DNA of 64,000 nt from an uncultured Nitrospiraceae bacterium (GCA_963706325.1 CAVPLT010000004.1:832001-896000), one strand, 5' to 3'. Positions 5,047 through 46,259 are shown, numbered from the stretch's first letter. Translations and numbers: made by a program. Notes: a model not told the origin generated them from the sequence alone.

Positions 5047-5064
5047 ACTGGGCAAAGCCCTAGA
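5047..5064 (-). promoter_or_regulatory. Palindromic operator box (copy 1) followed 22 nt later by -10-like TATCCT
   Basis: Minus strand TCTAGG-GCTTTG-CCCAGT, upstream of the 4944 operon. Confidence 0.6.
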
Positions 5065-5152
5065 GGTCTAGTCGCCCCGACGCATCGACTCTTGTGGCTA
5101 CCTGTACTATCGCGGCGACAGAAAACATGTCAGCGATAGGATTCGATTCCAG

Positions 5153-5581
5153 TTATTCCAAATCTTTTGATGGAAGCGTTGCCAAAAGCGGAAACATGTC
5201 ACGTTCCTCCGTCAAAAAATGTGCGCGAACCGTCTGCATCATGTCTTCAAAAAATTCGTCCAACGCTTGGTCGTCGTCGGTCTCTGCTTGCTGCAACTCG
5301 GTCATCATGGCCTTGATTTCGTCATGCTCCAGCAGCGCTTCCTGTACGAAGTGACGACCCGGTTCGCTTGCGTGTTGAATGACACTGTAGAGCATCTCTT
5401 CCTCTGCCTTGAAATGCGCGGCGAGCTGATCCAGGATTTGATCCACAATAGGTTTTCGCGAGTCGGCTTCCGCGCTTAAATACAACTGAAAGAGAACCAG
5501 AATATGTCGATGCTGCTCCCGGACGGTTTTCTGCACGTCGTCGGCTCCTATGGCCGTGCCATAGTCTTTTTCGTGGATCAT
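5153..5581 (-). CDS. Hemerythrin (HHE) domain protein
   Basis: H...AHFKAEEEMLY...EHDEIK...AHFLTEERDMFP metal-ligand pattern; GGAGG RBS. Confidence 0.85.
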   Translation of the reverse strand: MIHEKDYGTAIGADDVQKTVREQHRHILVLFQLYLSAEADSRKPIVDQILDQLAAHFKAEEEMLYSVIQHASEPGRHFVQEALLEHDEIKAMMTELQQAETDDDQALDEFFEDMMQTVRAHFLTEERDMFPLLATLPSKDLE

Positions 5582-5655
5582 ACAAGGGCCTCCCTCGATG
5601 GCCGATGGTGACTCTATTCTCCAACCAGAATTTAGCAGTTTAAGACTGGGCGCTA

Positions 5656-5673
5656 ACTGGGCAAGACCCTAAT
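5656..5673 (-). promoter_or_regulatory. Palindromic operator box (copy 2) followed 21 nt later by TAAATT with upstream TG
   Basis: Minus strand ATTAGG-GTCTTG-CCCAGT, upstream of hemerythrin 5581. Confidence 0.6.
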
Positions 5674-5771
5674 CGTCCTATAGATCAAAGCGCGTTACAG
5701 GTGCAGCAGGTCAGCTAGATGGGTCACGCTTATCACGGGTGAGGAAACTATTCGTCAATCTCTTTCCGATC

Positions 5772-5800
5772 GGCAGGGGCTGCGGTAGGCAGCCCCTGCC
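5772..5800 (-). terminator. Perfect 12-bp GC-rich hairpin just downstream of the DUF4403 gene
   Basis: GGCAGGGGCTGC-GGTAG-GCAGCCCCTGCC, 6 nt after the stop codon; no clear U-tract. Confidence 0.5.
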
Positions 5801-5806
5801 TGGGAC

Positions 5807-7285
5807 TTACCGGGCTTCCTGTCTTGACAGAGTGCGGCTCCCACTATCCTCAATCGCGATATGGCCTTGGGCACTCGCCGTTCCCTGAAGCAAGATCGTG
5901 GCGATCAAGGCCTGGGGCGTCGAGTGCGCTTGATCGGGCTGTTGGCCTGTGACGAGGATGTCCATCGTCATCGACCCTACCGTGTGCTTTCCCGTCAGCG
6001 CCTGTTTCATCTGGTCAATTTGCGGTGAAAAGTCAGTAGTCACAGCCTGGCGAAGTTTAGTTCTTAATTCTCTATCCACCATTTGCCAATAGCCCACGCG
6101 GACAGAGTCAAGCGCCGCCCGCGATTCGTTGGCCATCTGGAGGTCAGGAATGGATAACGTTTTTCCGTTATCATCGAGTCGTGGAGTCCCCCAGTAATAG
6201 ATAGTGCCCTTTAGGTCGCCGCTGGTCTCGACCGCCAATAAAATACGACCGTTCGCATCTGTCGCGTTGACTTGTTCAATGATGGCGCTCTCTGTTCCGG
6301 AGCCATCTAGCACAATCGTTTGGTGAAACAGTTTGCTTTGCGCCTGATGACTAAGATTGGCGTACGGCAAGGGAATTTTGGCCAGGATCACGAACGGCTT
6401 AGAATCTGGCGAGGGCGTTCCTGAATTCACGAGCGCAGTGGTCGGTGGCGCTTCTGCGCATGATTGATCGAAACTGACCACCGGCATCTCCCTTGCAAAT
6501 CCCGAGATGATTGTCTCCTGGGTCGTCCCCCGTTGCTGCCCTAGTATCACCTCGCGTGGATTCCCGTATAAACAGGCCCGAGTGTTGAGTGCGGAGATTG
6601 GGACAGACAAGGGACCTCCGAGGTCGTCCCACAGGCGCTGAAATGGGATACTGAAAGTTTCTGGCTGAACCGACTCCGCCAGGGCGCTCTTCGCATCCGA
6701 GATGGAGAACAGTTCAGGCAACTGATCTTTGACGGGAATGTTGAACATATTACACCGGGCGTCGCTCTCGGGCTTCAGGCCGACGGCGGTCTGTCCCGGT
6801 TCAAAACCGAACGCCACGGATTCGCGGTCTTGCAACAGCACCAGTTTCCCTGTCGCGTCTAAGGTCGAGTAGACCGGATCCAGTCGGCAGGTCCCAGCTC
6901 CGCCTCGGGTTTCGATAAACCCTTTATACTCAGCATGCACCGCGACCAGGCCATCCTGGATCCGAACTTGGGGTGGGCCATTGCGAACAAAGGTCCATCT
7001 GAAATCCTTCTCCAGCGCATGTCCCGTTTCCGTGAAGCGCTCGGGGATTGCGTCCCGGATAGCAGTTTGCAGCGGGGTGAGGTCCGTTTTGATTTGTAAC
7101 GGCACCTGAGAAAGGGGGGCCTTGGGTTGTTCCTTGTTCATGGCCGCGAAAGATGGAACGGCGCTGGTGATGGGTGGCGGAACCGGCTTGGTTGCAGCCT
7201 GGGGAATGGTGTGGCTGCAGGCGCCGACGACGAAAACCATGGGCACAAGAGCCATGGTGATGGATCTTGAACGGTGTTGCATCAT
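5807..7285 (-). CDS. DUF4403-family lipoprotein
   Basis: Lipobox VVGAC; beta-rich 492 aa; GDLKGTIYYWGTP motif; AGGAGG RBS. Confidence 0.7.
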   Translation of the reverse strand: MMQHRSRSITMALVPMVFVVGACSHTIPQAATKPVPPPITSAVPSFAAMNKEQPKAPLSQVPLQIKTDLTPLQTAIRDAIPERFTETGHALEKDFRWTFVRNGPPQVRIQDGLVAVHAEYKGFIETRGGAGTCRLDPVYSTLDATGKLVLLQDRESVAFGFEPGQTAVGLKPESDARCNMFNIPVKDQLPELFSISDAKSALAESVQPETFSIPFQRLWDDLGGPLSVPISALNTRACLYGNPREVILGQQRGTTQETIISGFAREMPVVSFDQSCAEAPPTTALVNSGTPSPDSKPFVILAKIPLPYANLSHQAQSKLFHQTIVLDGSGTESAIIEQVNATDANGRILLAVETSGDLKGTIYYWGTPRLDDNGKTLSIPDLQMANESRAALDSVRVGYWQMVDRELRTKLRQAVTTDFSPQIDQMKQALTGKHTVGSMTMDILVTGQQPDQAHSTPQALIATILLQGTASAQGHIAIEDSGSRTLSRQEAR

Positions 7286-7402
7286 GAGCCTCCTTGAGAT
7301 CCGACCTGAATGGATTCCGCTAGTGACGCCTTGGGGCGTCTGTCCAGACTCTGAGCAAAACCGAAATCACTCGCGATATTTATCAATGCATGCTCCAGAG
7401 CC

Positions 7403-7717
7403 TTATGGCTGCTGGATTTGCAGATTGTTGTTCACGGTTCTCACGCCCTTGACATCACGGGCCACTTCCGCGGCTCGGCTCTTCTGATCAGCAGACTTCA
7501 CCACACCGTTGAGTGTGACGACCCCGCGTTCGGTATCGACGTCGATGCGGGAGAAGTTCGACAAGCGATCGGAGGTTAATTTGGACTGCACTGAAGCCGT
7601 GATGGTCGCATCATCAATGTTTTGCCCCGCGGTCTTTCCGGTCGTAGACTGACAACCCACGATCGAGAGACATGAGACGGCAAGAGCAATGCAAGCGAAT
7701 CGATTGATCATAGTCAT
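7403..7717 (-). CDS. BON-domain (OsmY-like) lipoprotein
   Basis: Lipobox IVGC; IDDATITASVQSKL...IDVDTERGVVTLNG...VKGVRTVNNNL; AGGAG RBS before ATG 7717. Confidence 0.92.
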   Translation of the reverse strand: MTMINRFACIALAVSCLSIVGCQSTTGKTAGQNIDDATITASVQSKLTSDRLSNFSRIDVDTERGVVTLNGVVKSADQKSRAAEVARDVKGVRTVNNNLQIQQP

Positions 7718-7745
7718 TCTCCTGCGAGGGATGAAAGCATATCGG

Positions 7746-8072
7746 CTATCCGCGTCGGGAAACGGCTTCAGCGGCGCCCTTTTCAACTGTCTGCGTGGTT
7801 TCATCCACGAACTCCCGGGCGGCTCGTCCTGCATTGCGAATGGCCTGCTTTCCACCCTCGACATACTCTTGCCCTCGCTCAACAGCCGTATCCCAGGCGG
7901 CGCGTCCTTGCTCCGTGGCCTCGTCCAATTCGTCCTTTGCTCTCGATGCGTAGTCGCGGAGAGACGTGCGAAGCTCCGATCCCGATTGAGGCGCTACTAG
8001 CAATGCGATGCCGGCACCAATAAATGCGCCCGCCAAAAACGCTGACCAATTAGAAGAATCTTGGGTTTGCAT
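7746..8072 (-). CDS. YtxH-domain protein
   Basis: FLAGAFIGAGIALLVAPQSGSELR; AAGGAGG RBS. Confidence 0.9.
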   Translation of the reverse strand: MQTQDSSNWSAFLAGAFIGAGIALLVAPQSGSELRTSLRDYASRAKDELDEATEQGRAAWDTAVERGQEYVEGGKQAIRNAGRAAREFVDETTQTVEKGAAEAVSRRG

Positions 8073-8185
8073 GCTCGTCCTCCTTTATCCCTGTGGACAT
8101 GTGCGATGGGTGATTGTGCTGTGTTGGCCTACCGGCTCGACAGCCGTTGTGTACCCACAGTCTAGCAACATGTCGGAAATCTCTA

Positions 8186-8203
8186 ACTAGGCAAGGCCCT
8201 AGT
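8186..8203 (-). promoter_or_regulatory. Palindromic operator box (copy 3, perfect arms) followed 21 nt later by extended -10 TGcTAGACT
   Basis: ACTAGG-CAAGGC-CCTAGT on the plus strand, upstream of the ytxH-BON genes. Confidence 0.7.
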
Positions 8204-8619
8204 CATGATGGATTGTGATCCCAGCAGGATGAGCCGAAGCTGGTGCATGCGATGTTGATGTGTCGCGCATTTTCGAGCTGGCATAGCTGTCAAGTACTAT
8301 ACGTAGTTGTGGTATCGGTTTCCGGTGCCCGTCGCATGTCTAGGTGAAAACTCCAGGTATGAGACTGTTCGGCCGATGGGCTCATGGCAGCCCGCACGGT
8401 GCTGCGTAGCGTGATATATCGGATCGATTCCGTGATCTTTGAGTTGATCCGTTCAATGAAGTGTGGGAGGATTGCCGACACACAATCGATGGGCTCCCTA
8501 TGCAGGCGAAAAGAGCCCTGCATGGTCAGCGCCATCGAGGGCAATTACAGAATGGCTCTACGAAAAGATATGCACTTTACACAGGCTGATTGATTGACTT
8601 AGCGGAGGGAGAAGAGCCG

Positions 8620-9030
8620 ATGCCGACAACGACGCAATTCGTGGTGAGTGGACAGAGCAAGCCAGGGGTGCTGGCCGAGGTGGCTGCGGTGCTGGGAGCA
8701 GCGGGGGTCAACATCAAGGCATTCTCGGCGCCAGAGGTCACCGGTCCGGGCAAGCTGCGGTTGATCGTGGCGGATGTCGATGCCGCGCGTATCGCATTGC
8801 GGAAATCCAAGATCAAGTTCCGCGAAGAGACGGCATTAATTTTGAGCTTGGAAAACAAACCGGGGGCGTTGAAACAGGTGGCGGATTCCCTCACCAGAGC
8901 CCGCATCAATGTGAAATGCGGGTATTGCACCCCCTCACGGGAAGGCAAGCGGGCCATTGTGGTGCTGACCGTCTCGAACACTACTAAGGCGCTCGGGGTC
9001 CTACGCACCCAATCACTGGATGAGTTTTAG
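8620..9030 (+). CDS. Tandem ACT-domain protein
   Basis: SKPGVLAEVAAVLGAAGVNI and ENKPGALKQVADSLTRARINV. Confidence 0.85.
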   Translation: MPTTTQFVVSGQSKPGVLAEVAAVLGAAGVNIKAFSAPEVTGPGKLRLIVADVDAARIALRKSKIKFREETALILSLENKPGALKQVADSLTRARINVKCGYCTPSREGKRAIVVLTVSNTTKALGVLRTQSLDEF

Positions 9031-9041
9031 TCCCTCTCACC

Positions 9042-9743
9042 ATGGAGGAGAAGAGGACAGACAGCCATCGTCATCTTCTTCTCCTCCTTCTTTTTCTCGC
9101 CGCATGGTTTAGTGGCTGCTCCGGCGGGAGCCCGGTGCGGCCGTCCTATCCGCCTGGTTACCCGCTGGGATATGTCGAGCGGGGGAGCGCCTCCTGGTAT
9201 GGGCCGGGCTTCCACGGTAATCGCACCGCGAACGGTGAGCGGTATGATATGCATCAACTGACGGCGGCGCATCGTACATTGCCGCTCGGATCGGTGGCTG
9301 AAGTGCGATCCTTGTCCACCGGCCGCCAGGTGACGGTGCGCATCAACGATCGAGGTCCATTTGCGCGTGGGAGAATTCTGGATTTATCCTTTGCCGGCGC
9401 CCAGGCGATGGGCATGATCGCCCGCGGCACGGACGATATCGAGCTGCGCGTCATCCGTTACCAAGGAAAGGCCGGGGAATTTGGGGTCATGCGGGTCCAG
9501 GTTGGTTCATTTGCTGATCCGGCCAATGCGCGCGTCTTACTGGAGCGGCTGAAGGGGCGCTACCCAGGTTCGAGGGCGGTATCGGTCGATTTACCTGAGG
9601 GCCGTCGCTATCGGGTCTATGCCGGTCAGTTCCAGACGGAGTCTGCGGCTGAGCAGGCTGCGGCTCAGCTAAGAAGGAGCTTGGATACCGATCCGTTTAT
9701 CATCCGGGATGACACTGAGAGACTCACGACAGGGGATCCATAA
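9042..9743 (+). CDS. rlpA: Septal ring lytic transglycosylase RlpA (DPBB + SPOR lipoprotein)
   Basis: ASWYGPGFHGNRTANGERYDMHQLTAAHRTLP, VRINDRGPF, C-terminal VQVGSF SPOR domain; lipobox FSGC. Confidence 0.93.
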   Translation: MEEKRTDSHRHLLLLLLFLAAWFSGCSGGSPVRPSYPPGYPLGYVERGSASWYGPGFHGNRTANGERYDMHQLTAAHRTLPLGSVAEVRSLSTGRQVTVRINDRGPFARGRILDLSFAGAQAMGMIARGTDDIELRVIRYQGKAGEFGVMRVQVGSFADPANARVLLERLKGRYPGSRAVSVDLPEGRRYRVYAGQFQTESAAEQAAAQLRRSLDTDPFIIRDDTERLTTGDP

Positions 9744-10010
9744 GGGCGACGGCCTGAAAGTACACAACAGAAAGGCCTGATTTGGTGATTCGATATCCCG
9801 CAGGTGGAAGTACTGTAACCCTTGATGCGCCTCGCTGCCTATGCTATCTGTAGAGCTGATGGATGACAGTGACCCGAGAAGACCGTTTCCCGTCATCTTC
9901 CCACGCTCCAGGGTAAGCCTTGCAAATCGGACCACGGGCTCCGAATTGATCCAAGGATCCGTCAGTTACACCCATTACTGCGTCCGGCTCTTACACCCTC
10001 AATAGGTCTT

Positions 10011-15218
<5,208 letters not shown>

Positions 15219-15219
<1 letters not shown>

Positions 15220-16178: not shown

Positions 16179-16272
16179 TGTGTGGGCCGATTGGTTAGAA
16201 TAGGTGCAAATCTGTTGCGACCGTAGCATAGGGGCGGGGAGAGGGTCAAACGAAGGTCCGGCCCAAATCTCT

Positions 16273-16301
16273 TTGACTTTCGCTGCCTTGGACCGTATTC
16301 T
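16273..16301 (+). promoter_or_regulatory. Sigma70-like promoter for the LysM-trp transcript
   Basis: TTGACT-17 nt-TATTCT. Confidence 0.6.
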
Positions 16302-16406
16302 TACCACTCTCGCAAGCCGCGAAGGCGAATCGGACGAACCACCCACTTGCTCGTCTCGATCGCATGCGGAAGCAACCCATGCATATCAGCGCAGCCAAGG
16401 AGCCAC

Positions 16407-34748: not shown

Positions 34749-34777
34749 TTGACCGAGTTTTGAGCGAAGCGTAGACT
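34749..34777 (+). promoter_or_regulatory. Sigma70-like promoter
   Basis: TTGACC-17 nt-TAGACT. Confidence 0.5.
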
Positions 34778-35199
34778 GTACCTACGACTCGATACCACCC
34801 TTCATGGAGGTGGTCGCATGGTCTTCCGTGGCGAATATGGCCGCCGCTCGGGCCACGCCAGTCTTGTCTCTTCCACCTTCACATCTCAGCAGTCTCAGTG
34901 CCTGCTCGAGCAGGACCCACGCGGGATTGCCTCCTATCTCGTAGCACAGCGGAACGGTCCCGCTAGAAATCACACCTGCGCGCGCTTATCTATTAGGGAC
35001 GGACCTTTCACGCAGGACAATCAACCTCGGTCCGTTCTCCCCCGATCCTCATATCACCGCTGTCTGGTCCACCCTACTCTACAGGAGGACACCTCTATGA
35101 GAAAACGACAGGAAGGCTGTGTGCATCGGACTCAGGCGCGACGGCAGCCTGCCTGTTTGCCACGCGTCGAATTTTACCCGAGGCAGGGAGGAGGGCATC

Positions 35200-36147: not shown

Positions 36148-36198
36148 TCGTGCACCCTGGGAGCCGTCGGCTCCCAGGGGTGTCAGAGGAGGTCAATC

Positions 36199-36321
36199 AT
36201 GTCTTGGGAAAACTGGGCCGTGGCAATCGGGCTCGGTGCGCTCCTTATGATGTTCTTCGTCCTGATGGAGCTATTCTTCTCGGGCGGGCGATATCCGATG
36301 GACCATTCGCATCGGAAATAA
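36199..36321 (+). CDS. Small 40-aa single-TM protein
   Basis: AGGAGG RBS; MSWENWAVAIGLGALLMMFFVLMELFFSGGRYPMDHSHRK; below the ORF-track cut-off. Confidence 0.6.
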   Translation: MSWENWAVAIGLGALLMMFFVLMELFFSGGRYPMDHSHRK

Positions 36322-36363
36322 GAGAAGTGGCGGAGTGATTGTGGGCGACTCACGGCCGAAGCT

Positions 36364-36702
36364 TTAATTCAGACAGGACCACAGGCCAGGAAGCATGACC
36401 TTTGCCATCGCTTTGAGTTCGGATTCCGATTGCGGTGGAACGCCGGAAAGAGCAATCCCAAAATCTTTTCCTTTGGCCCATCGTACTGTGCCCCGGCGGA
36501 TTAACATTGGAATATCGGGAGTAGGTTGAATGACGATGACAACCAATTCCATCCCCACACTCACCAGCTCTTGACCTCGAATTCGACCTCCTGATGCGGT
36601 AATATCCTCGGTCACGCCGATCGTCTGAAAGGTCCCATTAGAATAATAAATCGGACATTGAGCCGGAATGCGACGAGGCTCACGTTCACGATAAGCGTTC
36701 AT
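36364..36702 (-). CDS. PilZ-domain protein
   Basis: REREPRR (RxxxR) and DITASGG (D/NxSxxG-like), GTVRW, FGI; start overlaps the vanZ stop. Confidence 0.8.
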   Translation of the reverse strand: MNAYREREPRRIPAQCPIYYSNGTFQTIGVTEDITASGGRIRGQELVSVGMELVVIVIQPTPDIPMLIRRGTVRWAKGKDFGIALSGVPPQSESELKAMAKVMLPGLWSCLN

Positions 36703-37139
36703 CTGGAGAGCATTCCTTTCCTCGGGCGATGACGGCGCACCACCTGCATCAATGCCAAACCAGGGGCAGGGCAGGAATATTTCTCCTGCCACAACACGAG
36801 CGTCGCGGCCATTATTCCCCCCAACGTATCGCTCATAAGGTCGTGTAGCGACGTTTCACGACCAGGTGCCGAGCCCTGTGCCACCTCCGTCCACAAGCCG
36901 AATACCATTGATAGCAAGATGCCGCACAACATGGCATAGGATAGGGGCCAGCCTCGTCGGCGAAAACCCTGAATGAGTAACCAGGCCAGAGTCCCATAGG
37001 CCGGCACATGGGCCATATCCCTCCAGTTTTCGGGAACCAATGAGATGAGTGTGCCGTGGAAGCCGATGCCTGGCGAAGCGACGGCGAGACCGACCAGAAA
37101 AAACATGTAACCCAAAATGAGGGCGACAACAAGAACCAT
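36699..37139 (-). CDS. VanZ-family membrane protein
   Basis: AHVPAYGTL, TEVAQ...PGRETSLHDLMSDTLG. Confidence 0.8.
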   Translation of the reverse strand: MVLVVALILGYMFFLVGLAVASPGIGFHGTLISLVPENWRDMAHVPAYGTLAWLLIQGFRRRGWPLSYAMLCGILLSMVFGLWTEVAQGSAPGRETSLHDLMSDTLGGIMAATLVLWQEKYSCPAPGLALMQVVRRHRPRKGMLSR

Positions 37140-37301
37140 GTGGGGATCCTTTCGTGGGTTTACATGACCTTCCGCAGAGTACTGCGGTAGTTGTCTTAGG
37201 CGCCAGCCGTCATTGGGCCGAGGGCCTTATGCTTTCGAGGGGCGCAGAACGCTGTCAATTGAAAATGGGGATGAAGCAGACTGTCGGACAGGTAATGAGG
37301 G

Positions 37302-37814
37302 TTAGGTCGTTTTCCCAGGCTTCTGATGAAGCCACTGCTCTGGATTTCTCGAACAAGCTTGATAGGCCTGGCCAAATCCCAGGACCAGGTGGGCATCAGT
37401 CATCCGCAGTTTCCACAAAGCAAAGTCTTCGAATCCAAACATCAGCTGTGACTGAGGGAACTTCAATACGTACAGCTGCTTCACAGTTTCGTACGCCGCA
37501 TCCGTGGAGGGTAGGATCACTGCGTCACCCTGCAGGTTAACGCGCTGCAGGGCCGATGGATTTTTCCCTGGCTTGTCTGGCTCGGCAATAAATAGACTGA
37601 CCCGTGAATCTGCCGATACATGTTGTGTGTGAAGCGCGAGTCGACTCAGATGGAGATACACGCGAGACCAGTTGTTTCCAAACACGTAGGGCACATGAGA
37701 GCCGAACGGATGGCCGTCTCGCAGGGTCAGTAAAACCCCAGTGCGTACCTCATTAACCAACTGTGCCAAAGCAGCTCGAACCTCGTCACTCGACATCGTA
37801 TCCGGCATAGACAT
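37302..37814 (-). CDS. Pyridoxamine 5'-phosphate oxidase-like / HugZ-family split-barrel protein
   Basis: GHPFGSHVPY, LSRLALHTQH, RVSLFI, RVNLQG, LVLGFGQA. Confidence 0.82.
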   Translation of the reverse strand: MSMPDTMSSDEVRAALAQLVNEVRTGVLLTLRDGHPFGSHVPYVFGNNWSRVYLHLSRLALHTQHVSADSRVSLFIAEPDKPGKNPSALQRVNLQGDAVILPSTDAAYETVKQLYVLKFPQSQLMFGFEDFALWKLRMTDAHLVLGFGQAYQACSRNPEQWLHQKPGKTT

Positions 37815-37994
37815 CGACAGACCTCCACGTCAGCATACTGTAGCGACTCCCCAGAATTGTCCAGATATTGGGGGGTAAACACCCCTCCCATCTCCCGCCT
37901 CAACCGTCTTCCCTTTGCGTCCAGAACGACGACAGGGTAACATGAGCGGCGGTCGAACATGTTAGAAGAGTGAAGATTGAAAGGGAGACACACT

Positions 37995-38399
37995 ATGAGA
38001 GACATGCGGCGGGGATGGTTACTGGTAGCCCTCTGTATCATGATGGGGTGGAGCGGCTGCGGTGGCGGCAAGCAAGCGGAGATTCAAGAAGACCGGCTTA
38101 CCGTCGGGCGTGTACAGGGCGAAGTGAAAGTTGGAATGTCTGCAGCTCAAGTGGCGGAACTGCTGGGATCGCCGAACATCGTGACCACGGATGATAAGCG
38201 TCGGGAGGTCTGGATTTACGACAAAGTGTCGACGGATCGTGTCGATACCGCGAGTTCCTCCTATGCCGGGCTCATCATTCTGGGGACCAACTCCAGTGAC
38301 CGCTCAAGCTCGCAAAGGCAGCGCACTCTCACTATCATAATAAAGTACGACGAAGACAAAAAGGTTCGGGACTTTGCCTACAACTCCACTCAATTCTGA
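37995..38399 (+). CDS. SmpA/OmlA (BamE-like) lipoprotein
   Basis: Lipobox WSGC; VKVGMSAAQVAELLGSP...EVWIY...LTIIIKYD. Confidence 0.72.
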   Translation: MRDMRRGWLLVALCIMMGWSGCGGGKQAEIQEDRLTVGRVQGEVKVGMSAAQVAELLGSPNIVTTDDKRREVWIYDKVSTDRVDTASSSYAGLIILGTNSSDRSSSQRQRTLTIIIKYDEDKKVRDFAYNSTQF

Positions 38400-38994
38400 G
38401 TGCTCAGGTTGGCTCACGCCGCGTCTGCTCATGTGTATTTTGCTGAGTGTGGCGGTGCCGGTGGTGGCCGCCGGCTGTGTGCGGCAACATACACAACCGT
38501 CGGAGCTATTCCAGCTCTCACCGGAAAGTAACGCCAACCGCGCGATGCAGACTCGTTTCTTCGAGACGACGAACGACAAAGAGCTACTTTCCGCTTCAGC
38601 CGCTGCCTTGCAGGATCTTGGGTTCCAGGTAGAAGAAAGCGTACGGGAGGTGGGTTTTCTGCGGGCTGCCAAGGAACGCAGCGCGCGTGAATATGGCCAA
38701 TACCTCAATCAGTTTTTCGTCTGGCTCCTCTCGCTCGGTCACCTGATCATGCCGGTCGATTTGCATCAGAAAGTAGCCGCCACCATCGTGACGCGTCCAC
38801 TGAACCAAGACGGCTCGCGGCAAGAAGTTCGGATCATGTTTTACCGGGTCCTGTGGAAGGGGGAGGGGCAAGCCGACCGTAATTACATTCCGCCCGGTGA
38901 GCAAAAAATGGAAATGATCCGCGATCCGGAAATTTATCAGCAATTTTTTGCGAAGCTTTCCAAAGCGGTGTTTTTGGAACCGCATGCGATTTAA
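38374..38994 (+). CDS. Lipoprotein, paralogue 1 of a tandem family (true start may be 38431)
   Basis: Lipobox AAGC; MQTRFFE...LQDLGF...YQQFFAKLSKAVFL. Confidence 0.75.
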   Translation: MPTTPLNSECSGWLTPRLLMCILLSVAVPVVAAGCVRQHTQPSELFQLSPESNANRAMQTRFFETTNDKELLSASAAALQDLGFQVEESVREVGFLRAAKERSAREYGQYLNQFFVWLLSLGHLIMPVDLHQKVAATIVTRPLNQDGSRQEVRIMFYRVLWKGEGQADRNYIPPGEQKMEMIRDPEIYQQFFAKLSKAVFLEPHAI

Positions 38995-39006
38995 CTGCGA
39001 GGATTC

Positions 39007-39444
39007 ATGAGCTGGATACGAAAGCTAGGGGCAGGGGCAATCGTCACGGGGTGTCTGATGCTGTACGGTTGCACGGCGCCGGAACCGCGCAAGGAGCTCT
39101 TCGCGCCGACCGAGGCGCAAATGAAAATCCGCAGCGCGCAAACTCGCACATTCGAGGTGCAGGATCGCACCGTGGCCATGCGCGGCGTCATCGCGGCGCT
39201 ACAGGACTTGGGATTTATTATTGAACGCGCGAATGAGCCGTTAGGCTTGGTCACGGCGGCGCGGTTTGCCGAGCCAAATTACTATGATGTGCTTGGCGTA
39301 ACGGTCACTGTACGGCCACAAGGCGACGGAAAGACCATGATCCGCGCCAACGCCATCTATAATAACAAGCCGATCGAGGACCCGAAGGTGTACCAGAACT
39401 TCTTTGCGGCGGTGGAACGCTCGCTTTTTCTGACAAAGGACTAA
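39007..39444 (+). CDS. Lipoprotein, paralogue 2
   Basis: Lipobox LYGC; AQTRTFE...LQDLGF...YQNFFAAVERSLFL. Confidence 0.78.
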   Translation: MSWIRKLGAGAIVTGCLMLYGCTAPEPRKELFAPTEAQMKIRSAQTRTFEVQDRTVAMRGVIAALQDLGFIIERANEPLGLVTAARFAEPNYYDVLGVTVTVRPQGDGKTMIRANAIYNNKPIEDPKVYQNFFAAVERSLFLTKD

Positions 39445-39447
39445 GGA

Positions 39448-40047
39448 GTGAGTACGACATCCGGCAGTGCGACCTCTCAATTGGGCGTCATCCATTCAAG
39501 GTGGATCGCATGTCTGCTGACACTCGCTGGAATGATAACCGGATGTTCGCCCTACGAATGGCGGCATGAGAATCAATGGGAGTCCCGCGATCAAATCTGG
39601 TTGTCCGAAGCCAGCCAAGTAAAAGTCCGTGCCGCACAAAGCCGAATCTTTGACACCACTGACCGTCCCAGGACCCTTCAAGCCGTGGTGTCCACGTTTC
39701 AAGATCTAGGTTTTTCCGTGGAAGTATTGGACGAAGAACTCGGCATCGTGTCCGGCAAGAAGTTCGAGGATTATGAAGCCTCGGAATGGGGTGATCCATC
39801 CTACTATACGTATCGGGACGACGGACTTCTGATTCTCACCAGGCAGTTTCGCAGTTGGGGACCCTTCTACCACCGGAGCGACCTTGTCCGCCTTACCGCA
39901 ACCGTTCGGCCACGCGGTGATCAGCAGCTGGTGGTGCGCGCCAGCGCGCAGTATTATTTGAAGGCCATTGAATCTCCCGAACCCTATCAGCAGTTCTTTC
40001 GCACACTGGAGCAGGCGCTTTTCCTTCAGGCCAACAACGCGCAATAG
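39448..40047 (+). CDS. Lipoprotein, paralogue 3
   Basis: Lipobox ITGC; AQSRIFD...FQDLGF...YQQFFRTLEQALFL. Confidence 0.78.
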   Translation: MSTTSGSATSQLGVIHSRWIACLLTLAGMITGCSPYEWRHENQWESRDQIWLSEASQVKVRAAQSRIFDTTDRPRTLQAVVSTFQDLGFSVEVLDEELGIVSGKKFEDYEASEWGDPSYYTYRDDGLLILTRQFRSWGPFYHRSDLVRLTATVRPRGDQQLVVRASAQYYLKAIESPEPYQQFFRTLEQALFLQANNAQ

Positions 40048-40574
40048 GAGTTCCTTCGGATGATTCAGTTCAGCGCATGAGCAGATCGGCACTCTTGCCG
40101 CTCTTGGCTCTTGAGAGGGTGAGTAGCGATACTGAAGCTCGATCCCTGTCACACTCACCGCAAAGTCGCATCATCCATCCATCTCCACGTTGATCGTTCA
40201 ACTATGGGTTTTCGAACCCCACCGCGAGTGCTCGTCGGCATACCATTTCCCCCGGTGTTGATTGCTTTCAGCGAGGTCGAGATATCTCAGGCGTCACAGG
40301 AACCCTGTGAACATTCAGGTCGCCCTTCGGCAATGCGCAGGTGCATTATTGAGGTTGAGGTGCTTAATCCACGTCGCGACTCAACCCAACACGGCCGGAC
40401 GACGTTGCTGTCTGCGCGAGTTAGGCCCGTAGCGCCATCTGTCGGAGAAACGCTCCTGTATTCTCATTTGCGCCAGCGATGAACTCGGCGTTTGTCGGAA
40501 AGGGTGTGATAGTACTCGGGGGGTATGATGGCCGGCTTCGTTTTGCGGTGTGACGGTCCTCTCGAGCAGGAGGC

Positions 40575-40603
40575 TTGACTGTTGATGGTTGTCGGCCTAG
40601 CCT
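40575..40603 (+). promoter_or_regulatory. Sigma70-like promoter of the dodecin gene
   Basis: TTGACT-17 nt-TAGCCT. Confidence 0.55.
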
Positions 40604-40639
40604 GTGTGGCATATTTACCATCCAACCAGGGAGGTCGTT

Positions 40640-40843
40640 ATGTCTGTTGCACGCGTGACGGAAATTATTGCCGCTTCGCCCAAGAGTTTTGACGATGCCA
40701 TTCACCTCGGCATCGCCCGCGCAAATAAAACGCTACAGAATGTGAAGAGCGCCTGGATCGAAGACCAGAAGGTGGATATTGAGGATGGGAAGATCACGCA
40801 GTACCGTGTGGCACTGAAAGTCACGTTTGTTCTGAAAGATTAA
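40640..40843 (+). CDS. Dodecin-family (flavin-binding) protein
   Basis: GGAGG RBS; MSVARVTEIIAASPKSFDDAI...RANKTL...YRVALKVTF. Confidence 0.9.
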   Translation: MSVARVTEIIAASPKSFDDAIHLGIARANKTLQNVKSAWIEDQKVDIEDGKITQYRVALKVTFVLKD

Positions 40844-40860
40844 GGAATTAGAGGAACAAC

Positions 40861-41037
40861 ATGAAGAATGTGGAAATGACCGTCGAAGGAACTCTATTGA
40901 CCATCAAGGTCGATCTCTCAAAAGAGTTCGGACCGTCAGCCTCTGGGAAGACTATTATCATTGCCTCGACAGAAGGCAATGTCACCATTCCTAACCGAGA
41001 GGAAAAAATCGGGCTCAATGTCTATCGAAAAAAATAG
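40861..41037 (+). CDS. Small 58-aa hypothetical protein
   Basis: GAGGA RBS; MKNVEMTVEGTLLTIKVDLSKEFGPSASGKTIIIASTEGNVTIPNREEKIGLNVYRKK; below the ORF-track cut-off. Confidence 0.8.
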   Translation: MKNVEMTVEGTLLTIKVDLSKEFGPSASGKTIIIASTEGNVTIPNREEKIGLNVYRKK

Positions 41038-41203
41038 CATCTGTGATCGATAGAAATGATGAGGGGATAGCTCAGGGAGACTGCGCGCGATTGACTCCGA
41101 CGTCGGGCGCGGCGGTATTCGGGGGTTGGCTTCTTGTTGTAATAGGATAGTGCCTGATTAGGAAGTAGAACGGCCGAACGATTTCACTGGTTCGTTGAAT
41201 GCC

Positions 41204-42776
41204 ATGTCCATGACCCCGCGCACACTCGCTCCTGCTGAAACTGTTACACCTGCCATCCTCATAGTCGATGACGATCCTGACATTTCGCTCGTCCTGCACG
41301 ACCTCCTCGAGCATGCCGGCTACCGGGTACAGGTGGCCGGCACTGGAGCAGAGGCGCTCGCCCGGGCCAGGGCGGATTCTTTTGCCGCGGTACTGCTGGA
41401 CTTGATGTTGCCGGACATGGACGGACTCTCCGTTCTCACACTCTTGAAACAGATCGATCCTGTATTACCCGTGATCATGCTGACGGCGTTTGTCGAAGTC
41501 GCCAAGAAACACGGGTCCTTGACGGAGGGCGCATTCGGCTATTTGACCAAGCCTTATGACGGTGAAGAACTCAAAGCCCTTATCCAGCGCGCGGTGGGAG
41601 TGAAGCATTTGTCGATCGAGGCCGCCGCGGCTAAACAGGCCTTGACGGCGAGCGAGGACCGGTTTCGAGAAGTTGTGCAGACCGCTCCAGACGCGATTGT
41701 GCTGGCCGACGGCGACGGATTTATTTTGTCCTGGAATGGTGCGGCCGAGCGACTGTTTGGGTATCGGTCGGAAGAGGTCCTGGGACAATCCTTGACCAGG
41801 ATCATGCCGGAACGGTACCGCGGCAATCACCAACGAGCGTTGGATCGGGTCCGCAACACGGGCGATCTACGCCTGAAGGGCACGATCGTGACCATGCACG
41901 GTTTGCACAAGGATGGCAGGGAGTTTCCAATCGAAATGTCGCTGAGCAGTTGGATCTCCGGTGGCCAGCGCGTGCATTGCGGCATTGCGCGCGACATCAC
42001 GGCCCGCAAGGAAGCTGAGGCGCGTCTCGTGCAACAACAGATCGAACAACAGGTCCTGTTAGACCTGATTCCCGCGATGGTGTGGTATAAAGATTCCCAT
42101 AATCGCATCGTGCGGGCGAATCGGCGAGCAGCTGAATCCATTAATAAGACCGTGGCAGATATTGAGGGGCACTCGACCGATGAGTTCTATCCGGACGAGG
42201 CCGAGAAGTATCATCAGGATGATCTGGAAGTGATTCGTATCAGGGCGGCCTAAGCTGGGTATCGTGGAACCCTATCGAACCGGGTCAGGGGAGAGATCTT
42301 GGGTGCAAACCGATAAGGTGCCCTATTTGGATCCAGAGGGTCACATTCTTGGAGTCCTGGTGTTCGCGCAAGACGTGACGGAGCGCCGACGGTCAGATGA
42401 GGCCTTATATGAATGCGAGGAACGTGTACGGATCCTCCTGGACTCTGCGTTGAACGGCATCGTCATGGTCGACGGAAATGGAAGGATCCTGATGGCAAAT
42501 GCCCGCCTTGGAACGCAATTCGGATATGAGAACGGGGAGTTGCTTGGGCAATTCGTCGAGACGCTCATTCTTCCGCGGTGGCGCGGTCGGTATCAGGCCC
42601 ATCGCTCAGCCGTTCTTGCTCACCCGAAGACCATGGATTTGAGCAATGGTTCTGACCTCATCGGTGTGCGAAAAGACGGGACAGAGTTCTCCCTCTCCAT
42701 TCACCTCACCCCCCTGACCACTACCCACGGGGTTTACGTCGTCACGTTCGTGACCGATCCTCACGGGTCCGCATGA
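41204..42776 (+). CDS. Receiver + three PAS-domain protein, apparent frameshift at ~42238-42241
   Basis: REC (LIVDDD, LLDLMLP, YLTKP), PAS (WNGAAERLFGY, HKDG); after the break another frame reads SGRPKLGIVEPY...QTDKVP, completing PAS2, then PAS3. Confidence 0.8.
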
Positions 42777-43228
42777 ATCCTCGTCTCATCCTCATCATGT
42801 GCGTGCTTGCGTTCATCGGGCTGTTACTGATCGTAGGAGCTCGCACATTCTCTCGCTGGGTGAAGATCCATTATCCTCGGCAAGCATCCGCCGTTCTCCT
42901 AGGACTGTGGATCCTTGGGATCACTGGAGGTTGGCTCATCGTGCGGGAAATACGAGACGAGCCCACCTATCAGCCCAATGATCTCATTACGTTGCAGCAA
43001 CCAGTGGTGGTAAAGACAATTGCGCTTGAGCGAGATTCCCGTGCCGTGACCTGCGTGGTAGACCTCCATGAACATCTCGGCGTGATGGAGATCCAACGCG
43101 AAAGTGGGACGTTGAAAGCACGCGTGGAAAGTAACAATAGCTCGGCCGCGCTATATTGTCCTGTCGGCTCAGAAGTGCATGTTGAAATAGCCTGGCTCCA
43201 TCGACCGACGGTGACCCGGAGAGAATGA
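42773..43228 (+). CDS. Hypothetical membrane protein (two N-terminal TMs)
   Basis: ATGA overlap with the upstream gene; hydrophobic segments. Confidence 0.65.
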   Translation: MNPRLILIMCVLAFIGLLLIVGARTFSRWVKIHYPRQASAVLLGLWILGITGGWLIVREIRDEPTYQPNDLITLQQPVVVKTIALERDSRAVTCVVDLHEHLGVMEIQRESGTLKARVESNNSSAALYCPVGSEVHVEIAWLHRPTVTRRE

Positions 43229-43694
43229 GACGCAACCGAATCCGTCGAGTCTCTCATGTGATTTCCTGCCGCATTTCACAAATGTTCCACCGTTCATTTA
43301 GCCTGATATGGTCTTGACAAGCGACGAGATGCCCGCCCCATTCTTAGCCAGCCGATTTCATTTGGGAATGAAAGTGCCGCAGAGCCACAGTGAGGCATAG
43401 CAATCCGCTCCAAGACACAGAGAGACTTTAGGTCTCTCCGTCCATCGATCGCACCTGGGGGACGTGGCGCGCATCGCCCAGCCTGCAGGCTCGGCCTTGT
43501 CCGAATCCTCCGCGACCACGCATAGGTGGAACAATGCGCATGCTGCCTTGTTCGCATAGACCTGCGAGAATCGTCATTGATTCAGGAACGAATACAACCC
43601 TGAGCGCGCATCGCCTCGCGCCAAGCCATCCGAGCATCCGGCACCACGCGCCGAAGGCTATTCGACTGGCCTCAAACCAGGGTGTCGGAAGGTA

Positions 43695-43712
43695 ACTAGG
43701 GCTTCCCCGAGC
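43695..43712 (+). promoter_or_regulatory. Palindromic operator box (copy 4) followed 22 nt later by extended -10 TGgTATCGT
   Basis: ACTAGG-GCTTCC-CCGAGC, upstream of the second hemerythrin gene. Confidence 0.6.
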
Positions 43713-43788
43713 TACTCCTGCAGCGCCGCAATGGTATCGTTTGCATGCTAGGTCGGTACGCGCTACTCACTCAAAAGGAGATTCAACT

Positions 43789-44283
43789 ATGCCTCGTAGA
43801 GCAGGTGTGGCATCCGGAGTCGTGGAGATGTTGAAAGAAGATCACAAGAAGGTGAAGGAACTGTTCGAGGAGTTTGAGTCTGCCGAAGGTCGTGCGCGGG
43901 GAGAGATCGCCAAAACCGCTATCCAGGAGCTACAGGTCCATGCAGACCTTGAGGAAACGCTTATCTACCCGGCCATTCGAAAGGAAATCGAAGCAGACGA
44001 CATGATGAATGAGGCAGTGGAGGAGCATCATCTCGTCCACGTCCTGATCAAGGAGCTCCAGAAACTCAAACCCAGCGACGAAAAATTTCAAGCCAAGTTT
44101 ACAGTGCTCGGAGAACTGGTCAAGCACCACGTTGAGGAAGAAGAAAATGAAATGCTGCCGCAGGCTGAGGAAAGTGACATCGATTGGGAATCTCTTGAGA
44201 CCCGCGTGATGAAACGGAGAGAAACCTTGATGGCCAAGGCCAATGGACGGGGCAAAGGGTCCAAAAGTGCTTCGAAGGCTTAG
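43789..44283 (+). CDS. Hemerythrin (HHE) domain protein
   Basis: AAGGAG RBS; LKEDHKKVK, HADLEETLIYP, EEHH, HHVEEEENEMLP. Confidence 0.9.
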   Translation: MPRRAGVASGVVEMLKEDHKKVKELFEEFESAEGRARGEIAKTAIQELQVHADLEETLIYPAIRKEIEADDMMNEAVEEHHLVHVLIKELQKLKPSDEKFQAKFTVLGELVKHHVEEEENEMLPQAEESDIDWESLETRVMKRRETLMAKANGRGKGSKSASKA

Positions 44284-44388
44284 ATACCTTCGAAGCTTTG
44301 ATGAGTTTGGCGGCAACATCGACTCGCGGGACATTTGCCGTCTGCCTAGAGCGAGGCAGACGGCGAGGTAGCCGGGAGAGACTGTTTT

Positions 44389-44826
44389 CTATTGAACCAT
44401 GATTGAGCCTTGCGACCTGGTCATACTGGTTTTCTCTTCGGAGGACGGGCGCACCGAATAGTTGACCGTGCCGACCCGGGTAAAACAAAGACCGGCGGTT
44501 TCATTGCTGGCCAAGGTAGTGGAATTGTCCATGCCCATACCCATAGCTTTGGAAAACCCATTTCGGCAGGAAACTCTGTGGTCAAGCGAACCTTCTATCG
44601 CAACGATCACGGATTCCTGTCGTTGATTGATCCAGCGTATTTCATCGCCCGCGTGGGCGGTCAATGTCGTCGGTGTCACGGAATCTGCGATGACGATGTT
44701 TTTGACCATCCCGGTCTTCGTCCCGACTTCCATGTCAGACTTGGTGTTCGACGCGGTGGGTGAGCTTGAACAGGCGTTGAACGACAACATCGCCAGACCC
44801 ATCAGTGATACTACAAGTGTATTCAT
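44389..44826 (-). CDS. Lipoprotein with cupredoxin-like fold
   Basis: Lipobox FNAC; PTTLTAHAGDEIRWINQ, LCFTRVGTVNYSV; GAGGAGG RBS; paralogue of 50772. Confidence 0.65.
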   Translation of the reverse strand: MNTLVVSLMGLAMLSFNACSSSPTASNTKSDMEVGTKTGMVKNIVIADSVTPTTLTAHAGDEIRWINQRQESVIVAIEGSLDHRVSCRNGFSKAMGMGMDNSTTLASNETAGLCFTRVGTVNYSVRPSSEEKTSMTRSQGSIMVQ

Positions 44827-44967
44827 ACGTTCCTCCTCAATGAAAGTGGTGAGAGCATGTCCTTTCCGGTCTTTTTGCTGCTGGAGCTATAGACGGACCG
44901 TTAAGGACGGGAGCCCCTTCGACGCGTATCGTCATTCCAACAGTACTGAGGCGGGCCGTTTGACCAT

Positions 44968-44985
44968 ACTCGGGAAAACCCCAGT
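44968..44985 (-). promoter_or_regulatory. Palindromic operator box (copy 5) followed 22 nt later by -10-like TACTGT
   Basis: Minus strand ACTGGG-GTTTTC-CCGAGT. Confidence 0.6.
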
Positions 44986-45042
44986 ATGCACGGCGCGATG
45001 GGATGATCGCTTCAATCGGTCGAAGTAGTCCAGAACTCTTAT

Positions 45043-45966
45043 TTGCCGAGGTATGGTCTGGATGACCACGAACGCTCTGTTCGAGACGGAGTGGAAGCAA
45101 AGGTGCCTGCCCTGAACACATCGGCTTCAAAAATATTGGTGGCTGGGTGCGCTTTGGCGGTGATTGTGCTGACGGCGGGCTGCGCCATCACGTTTGGTTA
45201 TCGCCACGCAGATTGGTTGATTCGTTGGCAAATGGATCATTATCTGGATCTGAATGCCGGACAACGCCGAGACGTGACCACGCGGTTGGAAACTGTACTG
45301 CGGCGACATCGGACTGAAGCCCTCCCGCAATACGAGCGTTTTCTTAAAGAGGTGCAAGAAAGGGTGGCCCGAGGATTGACGAATCAAGACCTTGACTGGG
45401 TCTATGCCTCCTATGATCGCTTTCGGGCGGATGTATTTGAACGACTAGCGCCTGACGGTGGGGTGGTTCTCACCTCGGTGACAGACAAGCAGATTCGACA
45501 CTTTGAAGACATTCTGCAAAAAGAGGAACACAAAGCTGCGCGGGTTTTACAGAAACCGGCCGTCGCGCGTTTGGAAGACCGGGCCAAAACGATGCTCTCC
45601 TGGGCCGAAGACTGGCTGGGGCCGTTGAGTCACGAGCAAAGTGGCCGTATTCGTCAATGGTCGCTCGCCTTGCCGGATACCCAGCCCACCTGGTGGCAAT
45701 ACCGGCGGCAGCGTCAGCAGGAACTCGTGACCCTGATGAGGCGTCAACCTCCCGCCGTAGAGGCCACTCAAGCCCTTCGTGCCATTTTTGTCACGCCTGA
45801 CCAGAGCGCACCGCGCGTGTACCTCGACACGGTGAAGGAGCTTCGCGTCCGTCTTACGACTATGCTACTGGGAGTCGATCGGACGCTCACTCCTACGCAA
45901 CGCCGCAAAGCGATCGCCACTCTCCAAAAATTAATCGACGATGTTCACGGTTTGTACACGAGTTAG
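45043..45966 (+). CDS. DUF6279-like helical lipoprotein (start uncertain)
   Basis: Lipobox TAGC; YRHADWLIRWQMDHYLDL, HRTEALPQY, WLGPLS.EQ. Confidence 0.7.
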   Translation: MPRYGLDDHERSVRDGVEAKVPALNTSASKILVAGCALAVIVLTAGCAITFGYRHADWLIRWQMDHYLDLNAGQRRDVTTRLETVLRRHRTEALPQYERFLKEVQERVARGLTNQDLDWVYASYDRFRADVFERLAPDGGVVLTSVTDKQIRHFEDILQKEEHKAARVLQKPAVARLEDRAKTMLSWAEDWLGPLSHEQSGRIRQWSLALPDTQPTWWQYRRQRQQELVTLMRRQPPAVEATQALRAIFVTPDQSAPRVYLDTVKELRVRLTTMLLGVDRTLTPTQRRKAIATLQKLIDDVHGLYTS

Positions 45967-46001
45967 CATGAGGATGCCGACCCCAGTACGACCCTTAGCC
46001 G

Positions 46002-46082
46002 CTAAAAGTGGACGACTCCAAACAACCACAATATAAGAATGAGGCTAAAGGGAACGCCGAGCAACCAAAGAATAATGGGCAT
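46002..46082 (-). CDS. 26-aa hydrophobic microprotein
   Basis: MPIILWLLGVPFSLILILWLFGVVHF; AAAAGG RBS; operator box upstream. Confidence 0.6.
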   Translation of the reverse strand: MPIILWLLGVPFSLILILWLFGVVHF

Positions 46083-46241
46083 AACACACCTTTTCTTTCC
46101 GGAGGTGGATTAGATCGGGGAGGAAGGATTTCAGCGTGACCGCCGATGCCTCCCGCCCCGATAGAGCGGACATTTTCTCTTTGGGACCCAAGAAAATGTG
46201 CGCTGCTATGTTTATGATGTGGCCATCGGCGGGCGACAGCC

Positions 46242-46259
46242 ACTAGGAGTAGCCCTGGA
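46242..46259 (-). promoter_or_regulatory. Palindromic operator box (copy 6) followed 22 nt later by CATCAT
   Basis: Plus strand ACTAGG-AGTAGC-CCTGGA, upstream of the microprotein. Confidence 0.5.

Follow-up and report, generated by a model that had tools for sequence, protein, structure and literature searches.

An 18-bp palindromic box with a fixed distance to the -10 element in Nitrospira and its candidate NarL/FixJ-family regulators

Introduction

Nitrospira is a driver of nitrification, both in soil and in treatment plants, and in our literature searches no regulon for its stress survival was found. This report concerns an 18-bp palindromic box in a stretch of 64,000 nucleotides from an uncultured Nitrospiraceae bacterium (GCA_963706325.1, CAVPLT010000004.1:832001-896000). 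We refer to this whole stretch as the window. An earlier note on the same DNA described six copies of the box, each in front of a gene or operon and each at a fixed distance from a -10 element. It proposed that a single activator of the LuxR/NarL family reads these boxes and thereby controls a general-stress or osmotic regulon. Here we describe the boxes and their promoters, follow the motif through the source genome, its family and beyond, and weigh which proteins would bind it.

Results

Boxes of the window

The window is positions 832001-896000 of contig C4 in the source genome (G000; 4.24 Mb, 96% complete, 8 contigs). All six 18-mers are present as described and lie outside gene calls, and their -10-like hexamers follow at gaps of 21 or 22 nucleotides. 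Genes were called with a purpose-built hexamer-based caller (4370 genes in G000, intergenic share 21%), so 'intergenic' is an approximate status here and below. The boxes and the genes or open reading frames (ORFs) that they face are as follows.

5047-5064, minus strand: box 1; -10 element TATCCT at 5019-5024, gap 22; heads the operon that runs from 4923 down to 1172
1172-4923, minus strand: predicted box-1 operon; 106-aa ORF, holin-X, 234-aa ORF, YihY/BrkB, AI-2E transporter (PF07332, PF03631, PF01594)
5656-5673, minus strand: box 2; -10 element TAAATT at 5629-5634, gap 21; weakest of the six (T at position 2), score 9.8
5153-5581, minus strand: hemerythrin-domain protein 1, predicted box-2 target (PF01814, E 4e-16)
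8186-8203, minus strand: box 3; -10 element TAGACT at 8159-8164, gap 21; rank 1 in the window
7403-8072, minus strand: ytxH and a BON-domain gene, predicted box-3 targets (PF12732, PF04972)
43695-43712, plus strand: box 4; -10 element TATCGT at 43735-43740, gap 22; the only plus-facing box of the six
43789-44283, plus strand: hemerythrin-domain protein 2, predicted box-4 target (PF01814, E 7e-15; start codon approximate)
44968-44985, minus strand: box 5; -10 element TACTGT at 44940-44945, gap 22; between divergent genes, facing the lipoprotein
44389-44826, minus strand: 145-aa predicted lipoprotein, predicted box-5 target; no Pfam match ('cupredoxin-like' is the earlier note's label)
46242-46259, minus strand: box 6; -10-like CATCAT at 46214-46219, gap 22; rank 2 in the window
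46002-46082, minus strand: 26-aa hydrophobic microprotein, predicted box-6 target; 26-codon ORF with conserved orthologs, no NCBIfam match
51241-51258, minus strand: seventh box; -10 element TAGGAT at 51212-51217, gap 23; score 13.2, rank 6; faces a paralogous lipoprotein at 50772-51206

From gene order we infer that the genes of the box-1 operon are co-transcribed. Pfam backs the labels holin-X, hemerythrin (both genes), YtxH and BON, but it has no match for the ORFs that had been called DUF883, DUF3618 and cupredoxin-like. NCBIfam is likewise without a match for the first two, and these labels stay unverified. Rfam has 0 matches in the window.

The six boxes are recovered by a matrix made without the window, from 55 outside sites: five take ranks 1-5 in the window and the box at 5656 ranks eighth. 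Three weaker candidates had been put forward as well. The box at 51241 holds, at rank 6; 41141-41158 and 53925-53942, at ranks 97 and 1957 with the window-free matrix, were rejected as boxes. An extended TG precedes the -10 element in three of the six window promoters, as noted earlier, but genome-wide it occurs in only 4 of 51 scored promoters against a background of 6.7% and is therefore no feature of the regulon.

Seventeen RNA runs share sequence words with this DNA, each only to a small extent. In the four compared with window 2000-9500 (X1, X3, X7, X8), short pieces are up to 100% identical to soil metatranscriptome assemblies, contigs that show neither start sites nor level nor strand.

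The motif in the source genome

How common is the box, and where does it lie? A symmetric matrix built from the six boxes was scanned over G000 outside the window. At a score of at least 14 it yields 49 matches, 45 of them intergenic, and at a score of at least 16 it yields 26, of which 25 are intergenic; the intergenic baseline is 21%. Under an order-5 Markov model of intergenic sequence, 3.2 and 0.7 matches would be expected at these scores, and 20 column-shuffled matrices at a score of 16 gave 1-16 matches each, 0-4 of them intergenic. The position weight matrix scan that had been suggested as a check thus finds matches concentrated between genes.

The core points the same way. CTAGG-N6-CCTAG has 22 intergenic copies against 0.31 expected and 0 in coding DNA, and it comes second in an unguided ranking of all intergenic palindromic 5-mer dyads. 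Copies peak sharply at a spacer of 6 (22), with 5 at spacer 7 and 0-3 at others. The reversed-pattern control GATCC-N6-GGATC was left aside, GATC being common and CTAG rare. Refinement gives the consensus ACTAGGG-N4-CCCTAGT. A refined matrix, trained on 61 sites, finds 94 intergenic sites at score 13 (5.6 expected) and 152 at score 9 (45 expected), and the total in G000 is about 90-110 sites.

Two features of the oriented box stand out. Its middle is AT-rich (66% A+T at positions 8-11), and its halves differ: position 7 is G in 46 of 61 distal but 21 of 61 proximal halves in G000, and in 42 of 50 distal but 14 of 50 proximal halves in other genomes.

The same searches brought up other elements. 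The top intergenic dyad, CGTAC-N7-GTACG (25 copies), belongs to a near-identical 23-bp palindrome without a -10 element at a fixed gap (for example C4:628367, C4:105245 and C5:94239) and looks like a repetitive extragenic palindromic (REP)-type repeat. GTATC-N6-GATAC has 21 intergenic copies, often closely paired and with no fixed -10 (for example C1:422245, C3:72126 and C7:88307); a sigma-54 enhancer-binding protein may bind there. At two contig starts, C1:1461 and C7:2187, the same box stands in near-identical promoters, which suggests a short duplication or an assembly overlap. Two box-bearing orphan sites were considered as small RNAs and rejected, as both lead to small proteins; several other sites have no called gene.

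Distance to the -10 element

The -10 weight matrix used to score promoters holds textbook frequencies; the main spacing tests use plain TAnnnT. Among the 112 flanks of 56 sites outside the window, TAnnnT occurs at gap 22 in 18 and at gap 21 in 6, where 0.9 is expected per position. In 20 regulator loci from other genomes, 172 flanks were scored and 32 have it at gap 22, where 1.4 would be expected. Gap 20, which corresponds to the class II centre of CRP at -41.5, accounts for 3 of 112 flanks in G000 and 0 of 172 in the other genomes. Two other top intergenic dyads show no comparable TAnnnT peak. The conserved spacing of 21-22 nucleotides expected by the earlier note is therefore seen, as a peak at gap 22, in G000 and in other genomes.

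Provided that the hexamer begins at -12, a gap of 22 puts the box at a predicted -52 to -35 with its centre near -43.5. The interval matches the one proposed at the outset, but the assignment to the class II activator position does not carry over: the predicted position fits the non-canonical -43.5 mode of Escherichia coli NarL, not that of class II CRP sites. No -35 consensus is present among 51 promoters.

Conservation in orthologous promoters

Orthologous loci, like the genomes profiled below, are kin, and counts over them are not independent. At box 1 the box and a TAnnnT at gap 22 are found in 9 of 9 orthologous loci, where identity to the window is 94% in the box but 43% in the spacer. 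The variant box 2 is found unchanged in 7 of the 11 orthologous loci examined, and box 3 with its -10 element in 10 of 10. Of the 16 loci homologous to that of box 4 (L002-L017), three of which match at the level of paralogs, 15 have the box upstream. In the 4 other genomes with an ortholog of the box-5 lipoprotein, box and TACTGT stand at gap 22 in all 4; the box-6 microprotein and its upstream box are both kept in 4 of 4 fetched loci. The sole orthologous locus fetched for the seventh box, L116, has the box at gap 23. Over these orthologous promoters, box and -10 element stay in place while the spacer drifts. Control genes without a box have none in orthologs either: 0 of 10 loci for DUF4403, 0 of 3 for topoisomerase VI and 0 of 2 for the REC-PAS gene.

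Single sites can be gained or lost, as one locus illustrates. At L088:1501 (genome G006) a strict box precedes the ortholog of a 58-aa ORF at window 40861-41037, where the window itself has no box.

Candidate regulators

Which protein reads the box? G000 encodes 25 GerE-domain proteins. Two of them, the response regulators RR1 (C4:790072-790758, plus strand) and RR2 (C4:790944-791600, minus strand), are convergent neighbours 41 kb upstream of the window, and 24 of the 83 listed intergenic sites lie around this pair, within C4:768-890 kb. In both, the receiver (PF00072) and GerE (PF00196) domains score above cut-off, and no kinase adjoins either. Of the 21 sequences aligned for each protein, 12 were inspected, and all of these conserve the phospho-acceptor site (DD, D, T, K); both proteins keep the recognition helix K[TA][VI]EFH[KR]. 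RR1 homologs at 94% identity come from Nitrospira sp.

Strict box counts range from 0 to 23 across a panel of 120 family genomes and differ within genera. We divided the panel into 32 box-rich genomes (at least 7 strict boxes), 34 box-poor genomes (0-2) and 54 held out. An RR1 ortholog is present in 30 of the 32 box-rich and 0 of the 34 box-poor genomes. RR2 is adjacent and convergent in all 30 RR1-bearing box-rich genomes; 3 box-poor genomes pass the E-value through other paralogs. Among the held-out genomes, boxes are more numerous in the 14 that carry RR1 (1-8) than in the 40 that lack it (0-7; p 1e-5). For the whole panel the median is 9 boxes with RR1 and 1 without (within-genus permutation 0/100000), and 35 of the 38 genomes with at least 7 boxes carry RR1/RR2. 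Orthology of RR1 is backed by synteny in 20 loci and by a quick tree of 8 regulator pairs.

Other candidates do not track the box. A UvrY-like response regulator is found in 23 of 32 box-rich and 17 of 34 box-poor genomes, the kinase-paired paralog type in 25 of 32 and 23 of 34, and two CRP-like types in 16 of 32 against 10 of 34 and 13 of 32 against 5 of 34 (the FNR-like C6:128034 was left out). The autoinducer-binding domain PF03472 was not found in G000, in a search whose control matched in E. coli only; the LuxI synthase PF00765 has no match in G000, nor in any control genome. Structure prediction for RR1 together with RR2 gave a score of 0.23 against a mark of 0.34, with controls not folded, and speaks neither for nor against a complex. 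The idea of one LuxR/NarL-family activator is supported as to family, since a NarL-type pair co-occurs with the box, but judged from these sequence comparisons the candidate binders are probably two members of a clade of seven paralogs and not one protein.

Orphan kinases

A local profile finds 20 HisKA_3-type kinases in G000. Twelve adjoin a regulator and 8 do not, and 7 of the 8 unpaired kinases form one clade in a quick tree (Shimodaira-Hasegawa-like approximate likelihood ratio test, SH-aLRT, 100). A box lies within 7 kb upstream on the same strand of 6 of these 7 orphan-clade kinases but of 0 of the 12 paired ones. The clade is present in 31 of 32 box-rich and 5 of 34 box-poor genomes, and its copy number, 0-20 per genome, follows the number of boxes (rho 0.78). 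The regulators themselves are unequal in this respect: a box with a -10 element faces RR2 in 15 of 21 loci (two more are doubtful), but RR1 in 1 of 21.

One orphan-clade kinase ends an RsbR/S/T operon on contig C7. This stressosome operon of the RsbR/RsbS/RsbT type (C7:8618-16495; L050 and beyond) has a perfect box at its head and is followed by two kinases. No sigma-B-type output gene was seen beside it.

Predicted target genes

Pfam was scanned with 152 proteins, from the island around the regulators and from behind boxes. Genes directly or closely behind boxes encode Fe/Mn superoxide dismutase, a Dps/ferritin-like protein, CsbD, Ku together with topoisomerase IB, and a CBM48-GlgC pair; to these are added PRC-barrel proteins, a TreS-type amylase, YtxH-BON, BON-YflT, DUF1328, hemerythrins, YceI and DoxX. 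Signalling genes also stand behind boxes, namely the RsbR/RsbS STAS proteins of the stressosome operon and several hybrid kinases. The island also contains genes for LigD and glycogen debranching, for which no box is listed. Families of this kind are typical general-stress genes. The regulon proposed at the outset thus has predicted targets of the stress type, but nothing in the data singles out its 'osmotic' part.

Boxes also precede small ORFs with two CxxC pairs, at C4:771982 (-), C4:812485 (-), C4:587803 (+), C1:585492 (+) and C7:696118 (-). These are possibly two families of zinc-ribbon proteins.

Range beyond the family

Outside the family, 4 of 101 genomes of the phylum have 1-2 strict matches. 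A scan of GTDB for the box plus a -10 element returned at least 123 loci, from 5 of 64 parts. Among the matches listed, 20 loci are from Nitrospirota (all at gap 21-22), 34 from Acidobacteriota (31 at gap 22), and 60 others spread across gaps 19-22. Five acidobacterial genomes hold 7-24 strict boxes clustered around regulators of the KTVEFHK clade, so named here for the recognition helix (SH-aLRT 99), and TAnnnT stands at gap 22 in 23 of 88 flanks. Their box is nearly symmetric, unlike that of Nitrospira. Since the acidobacterial targets differ, the pairing of protein and box looks general and the stress role specific to Nitrospiraceae.

Single sites of box plus -10, all weak matches, were seen in Burkholderiales/Rhodocyclaceae (at least 9 loci, gaps 21-22), Caulobacter and Mycobacterium (L133, L137, L138, L171, L175, L184, L185, L202, L204, L224, L230, L242).

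Discussion

We consider it probable that the box is the site of a NarL/FixJ-family response regulator, centred near -43.5, which would activate some 90 promoters of a predicted general stress regulon in Nitrospira. Such activators belong to a known family; their wiring here is new as far as the literature was searched. Those searches, whose scope excluded most subscription journals, supplements and motif databases, gave no account of the motif or the regulon in Nitrospira or Acidobacteria.

How would such a system work? Orphan HisKA_3 kinases (7 in G000, up to 20 elsewhere), one of them at the end of the stressosome operon, would phosphorylate RR1 and/or RR2. A regulator dimer would then bind the box just upstream of a poor -35 element and recruit a sigma-70-type polymerase through its alpha subunit, as NarL does at yeaR. 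The boxes before RR2 and six of the seven kinases would provide positive feedback, and a few local copies of the box would probably serve the five kinase-paired paralogs, whose recognition helix is similar. Because NarL activates yeaR from -43.5 through the C-terminal domain of the alpha subunit (alpha-CTD), and because the 51 promoters lack a -35 consensus, we infer phosphorylation-dependent activation by RR1 and/or RR2.

A bolder version goes further than we would readily defend, and we offer it as a tentative proposal that may well be wrong. Activators, and not a sigma factor of its own, would run the general stress response of Nitrospiraceae: as many as 20 orphan kinases, one wired to the stressosome, would feed an RR1:RR2 heterodimer on the asymmetric -43.5 box, the circuit would amplify itself through RR2 and the kinases, and clade and box would have been rewired in Acidobacteria. 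A heterodimer would explain the asymmetry at position 7; contacts of polymerase with the proximal half would explain it too.

Several observations weigh against the regulon and its assignment to RR1/RR2. Many predicted targets match no family, and most of the 35 acidobacterial ORFs behind boxes encode kinases, receivers, AI-2E transporters or subunits of ATP synthase (one is a DUF892), not classic stress genes. Nine of the 76 genomes without a detected RR1 hold 4-13 strict boxes. Among individual genomes, G131 (99% complete) has 9 boxes with neither the RR pair nor the kinase clade, and G100 (91% complete) has 13 boxes and 9 kinases but no RR pair. Conversely, 2 of the 44 genomes with RR1 have only 1-2 strict boxes. 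The RR1 orthologs of the box-rich genomes score 269 bits or more, and the cut-off was set post hoc at a gap in bit scores from 242 to 260. Six of the 25 GerE types were profiled, by a direct or close query; three with non-receiver N-termini and four with only the helix-turn-helix were left out. Finally, co-occurrence is what one would see either for a regulator or for a target inherited in the same island, and a profile cannot separate the two. The existence of an RpoS-like sigma factor and a slight bias at -13 count on the same side and are taken up below.

The box might instead be shared by the whole KTVEFHK clade of seven paralogs, with each kinase-regulator pair driving its own subset while RR1/RR2 merely travel with the stress island, so that no single regulon exists. 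The seven do form one clade with similar helices. In several RR1-less genomes boxes adjoin kinase-paired paralogs of the RR1/RR2 clade, including a conserved box just downstream of the regulator of the C7:696210 type, and acidobacterial boxes adjoin local modules of kinase, regulator and receiver with other targets. We nevertheless judge this account unlikely, for where the paired paralogs occur without RR1/RR2 there are mostly 0-2 strict boxes (23 of the 34 box-poor genomes have such paralogs), and large box counts go with RR1/RR2.

Could a sigma factor set the specificity, with the box protein only helping, or repressing until stress? By NCBIfam, the sigma factors of G000 include RpoD and another RpoD-like protein, besides one RpoS-like and one RpoH-like factor. 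The best match of the RpoS-like protein is rpoS, at 326 bits against a cut-off of 379; position -13 is C a little more often than in the background (20 of 51 promoters against 24.5%, p 0.02); and the target list resembles that of sigma-driven stress regulons. Yet this sigma occurs almost throughout the family, without regard to the box (30 of 32 box-rich, 28 of 34 box-poor genomes; the extracytoplasmic function sigmas among the 14 found were left unprofiled). The bias at -13 is weak, and a site that ends at about -35 without a -35 consensus would fit activation better than repression. We therefore think it quite improbable that an RpoS-like sigma is in charge.

A transcription factor of another family, CRP-like on a 5-6-5 geometry or LuxR of the quorum-sensing type, is a candidate to which we attach very little weight. 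In its favour, boxes are found near two CRP-like genes (C2:68267, C1:147132), the N-terminus of three GerE proteins is not a receiver, and the box fits CT-N12-AG, the pattern of quorum-sensing LuxR sites. However, each of the two CRP-like types is without a match in half or more of the box-rich genomes, the class II centre of CRP lies two bases closer than that of the box, and the autoinducer-binding domain was not found in a genome that is 96% complete. The reading as an artefact of CTAG rarity in coding DNA, or as a small repeat with no regulatory role, can be dismissed: CTAG is 3x denser between genes than within them, but the dyad peak at spacer 6, the 45 intergenic matches against 3.2, the free variation of spacers and flanks around a -10 fixed at gap 21-22, and the retention of the box in orthologs already contradict it through the spacing and footprint tests.

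Several known systems resemble the predicted one in part. At yeaR of E. coli, the palindrome bound by NarL has its centre at -43.5 and lies immediately before the -35 region; alpha-CTD sits in the minor groove between the monomers and makes the contact with NarL, and activation proceeds without contact with sigma region 4 (PMC10853779). For the Nitrospira box the predicted centre is identical, and its middle is AT-rich. NarL, however, reads a 7-2-7 site with K188/V189/K192 (PMC10853779), whereas the Nitrospira box is 7-4-7 and its clade carries the KTVEFHK helix. RR1 reaches 110 bits on the NarL model, against a cut-off of 250, and the Nitrospira targets are stress genes, not genes of nitrate respiration.

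One of the two best NCBIfam matches of both RR1 and RR2 is PRK15369, presumably the SsrB model (165 and 151 bits against a cut-off of 242). Salmonella SsrB is a NarL-family activator of an 18-bp 7-4-7 palindrome with the one-hybrid motif mCCyTA, so the geometry is common to both boxes and the motif overlaps the half-site CCCTA (PMC2837388). SsrB differs in that a single cognate kinase serves it, its sites stand at no strict distance from the transcription start, and it controls a secretion system (PMC2837388); in Nitrospira the spacing is fixed, the pair is orphan and the targets are stress genes.

The earlier note had likened the core of the motif to the RcsAB box. RcsB and RcsA-RcsB act from sites just upstream of the -35 region, have stress targets of the osmC type and autoregulate rcsA, and in RcsA-RcsB heterodimers one half-site differs (PMC5651002). 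The Nitrospira box is likewise asymmetric, and RR2 is preceded by a box of its own. But RR1 and RR2 score 88 and 77 bits on the RcsB model, against a cut-off of 235; both keep their phospho-acceptor residues; and the candidate kinases are of the HisKA_3 type, not an RcsC/RcsD relay. By family tests the kinship fails: the candidate regulator is neither RcsB nor a quorum-sensing LuxR.

DosR of mycobacteria, OrrA of Anabaena and staphylococcal NreC are NarL-type regulators of survival or the low-oxygen response, each system with one regulator and one or two kinases and with a half-site spacing unlike that of the Nitrospira box. DosR and OrrA bind GC-rich palindromes, and NreC binds one too (PMC8139620). 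The sole sequence comparison places DevR sixth in the list of PDB matches.

The sigma-B, RpoS and EcfG/PhyR responses also have Dps, CsbD, YtxH, BON, YflT, Ku and trehalose or glycogen enzymes among their targets, and are fed by many input kinases or an RsbRST stressosome. Target families overlap with those of Nitrospira, which has many kinases and an RsbRST stressosome too. The difference lies in the source of specificity, predicted here to be an activator box on promoters with an ordinary -10 element and not a dedicated sigma motif.

If this is true, a general stress response can be built on NarL-type activators, and the stressosome has an output outside the sigma-B lineages. The box would then serve as a countable marker of a stress-survival trait, with strict counts running from 0 to 23 over 120 genomes. 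The two regulators, the kinase clade and the roughly 90 promoters are named, and work on them in vitro or in E. coli needs no genetics in Nitrospira itself.

Other observations

Two loci in the window lie outside the predicted regulon. At 41210-42776 (plus strand) a receiver-PAS gene is broken by a change of frame near 42245-42253, an assembly error or a pseudogene. At 46673-49914 (plus strand) are genes that, judged by translation only, resemble topoisomerase VI subunits B and A. In the C4 island, trehalase-like and glycogen-debranching genes are called in two or three pieces (L047:5351-6615, L049:689-2641); these splits may be assembly indel errors.

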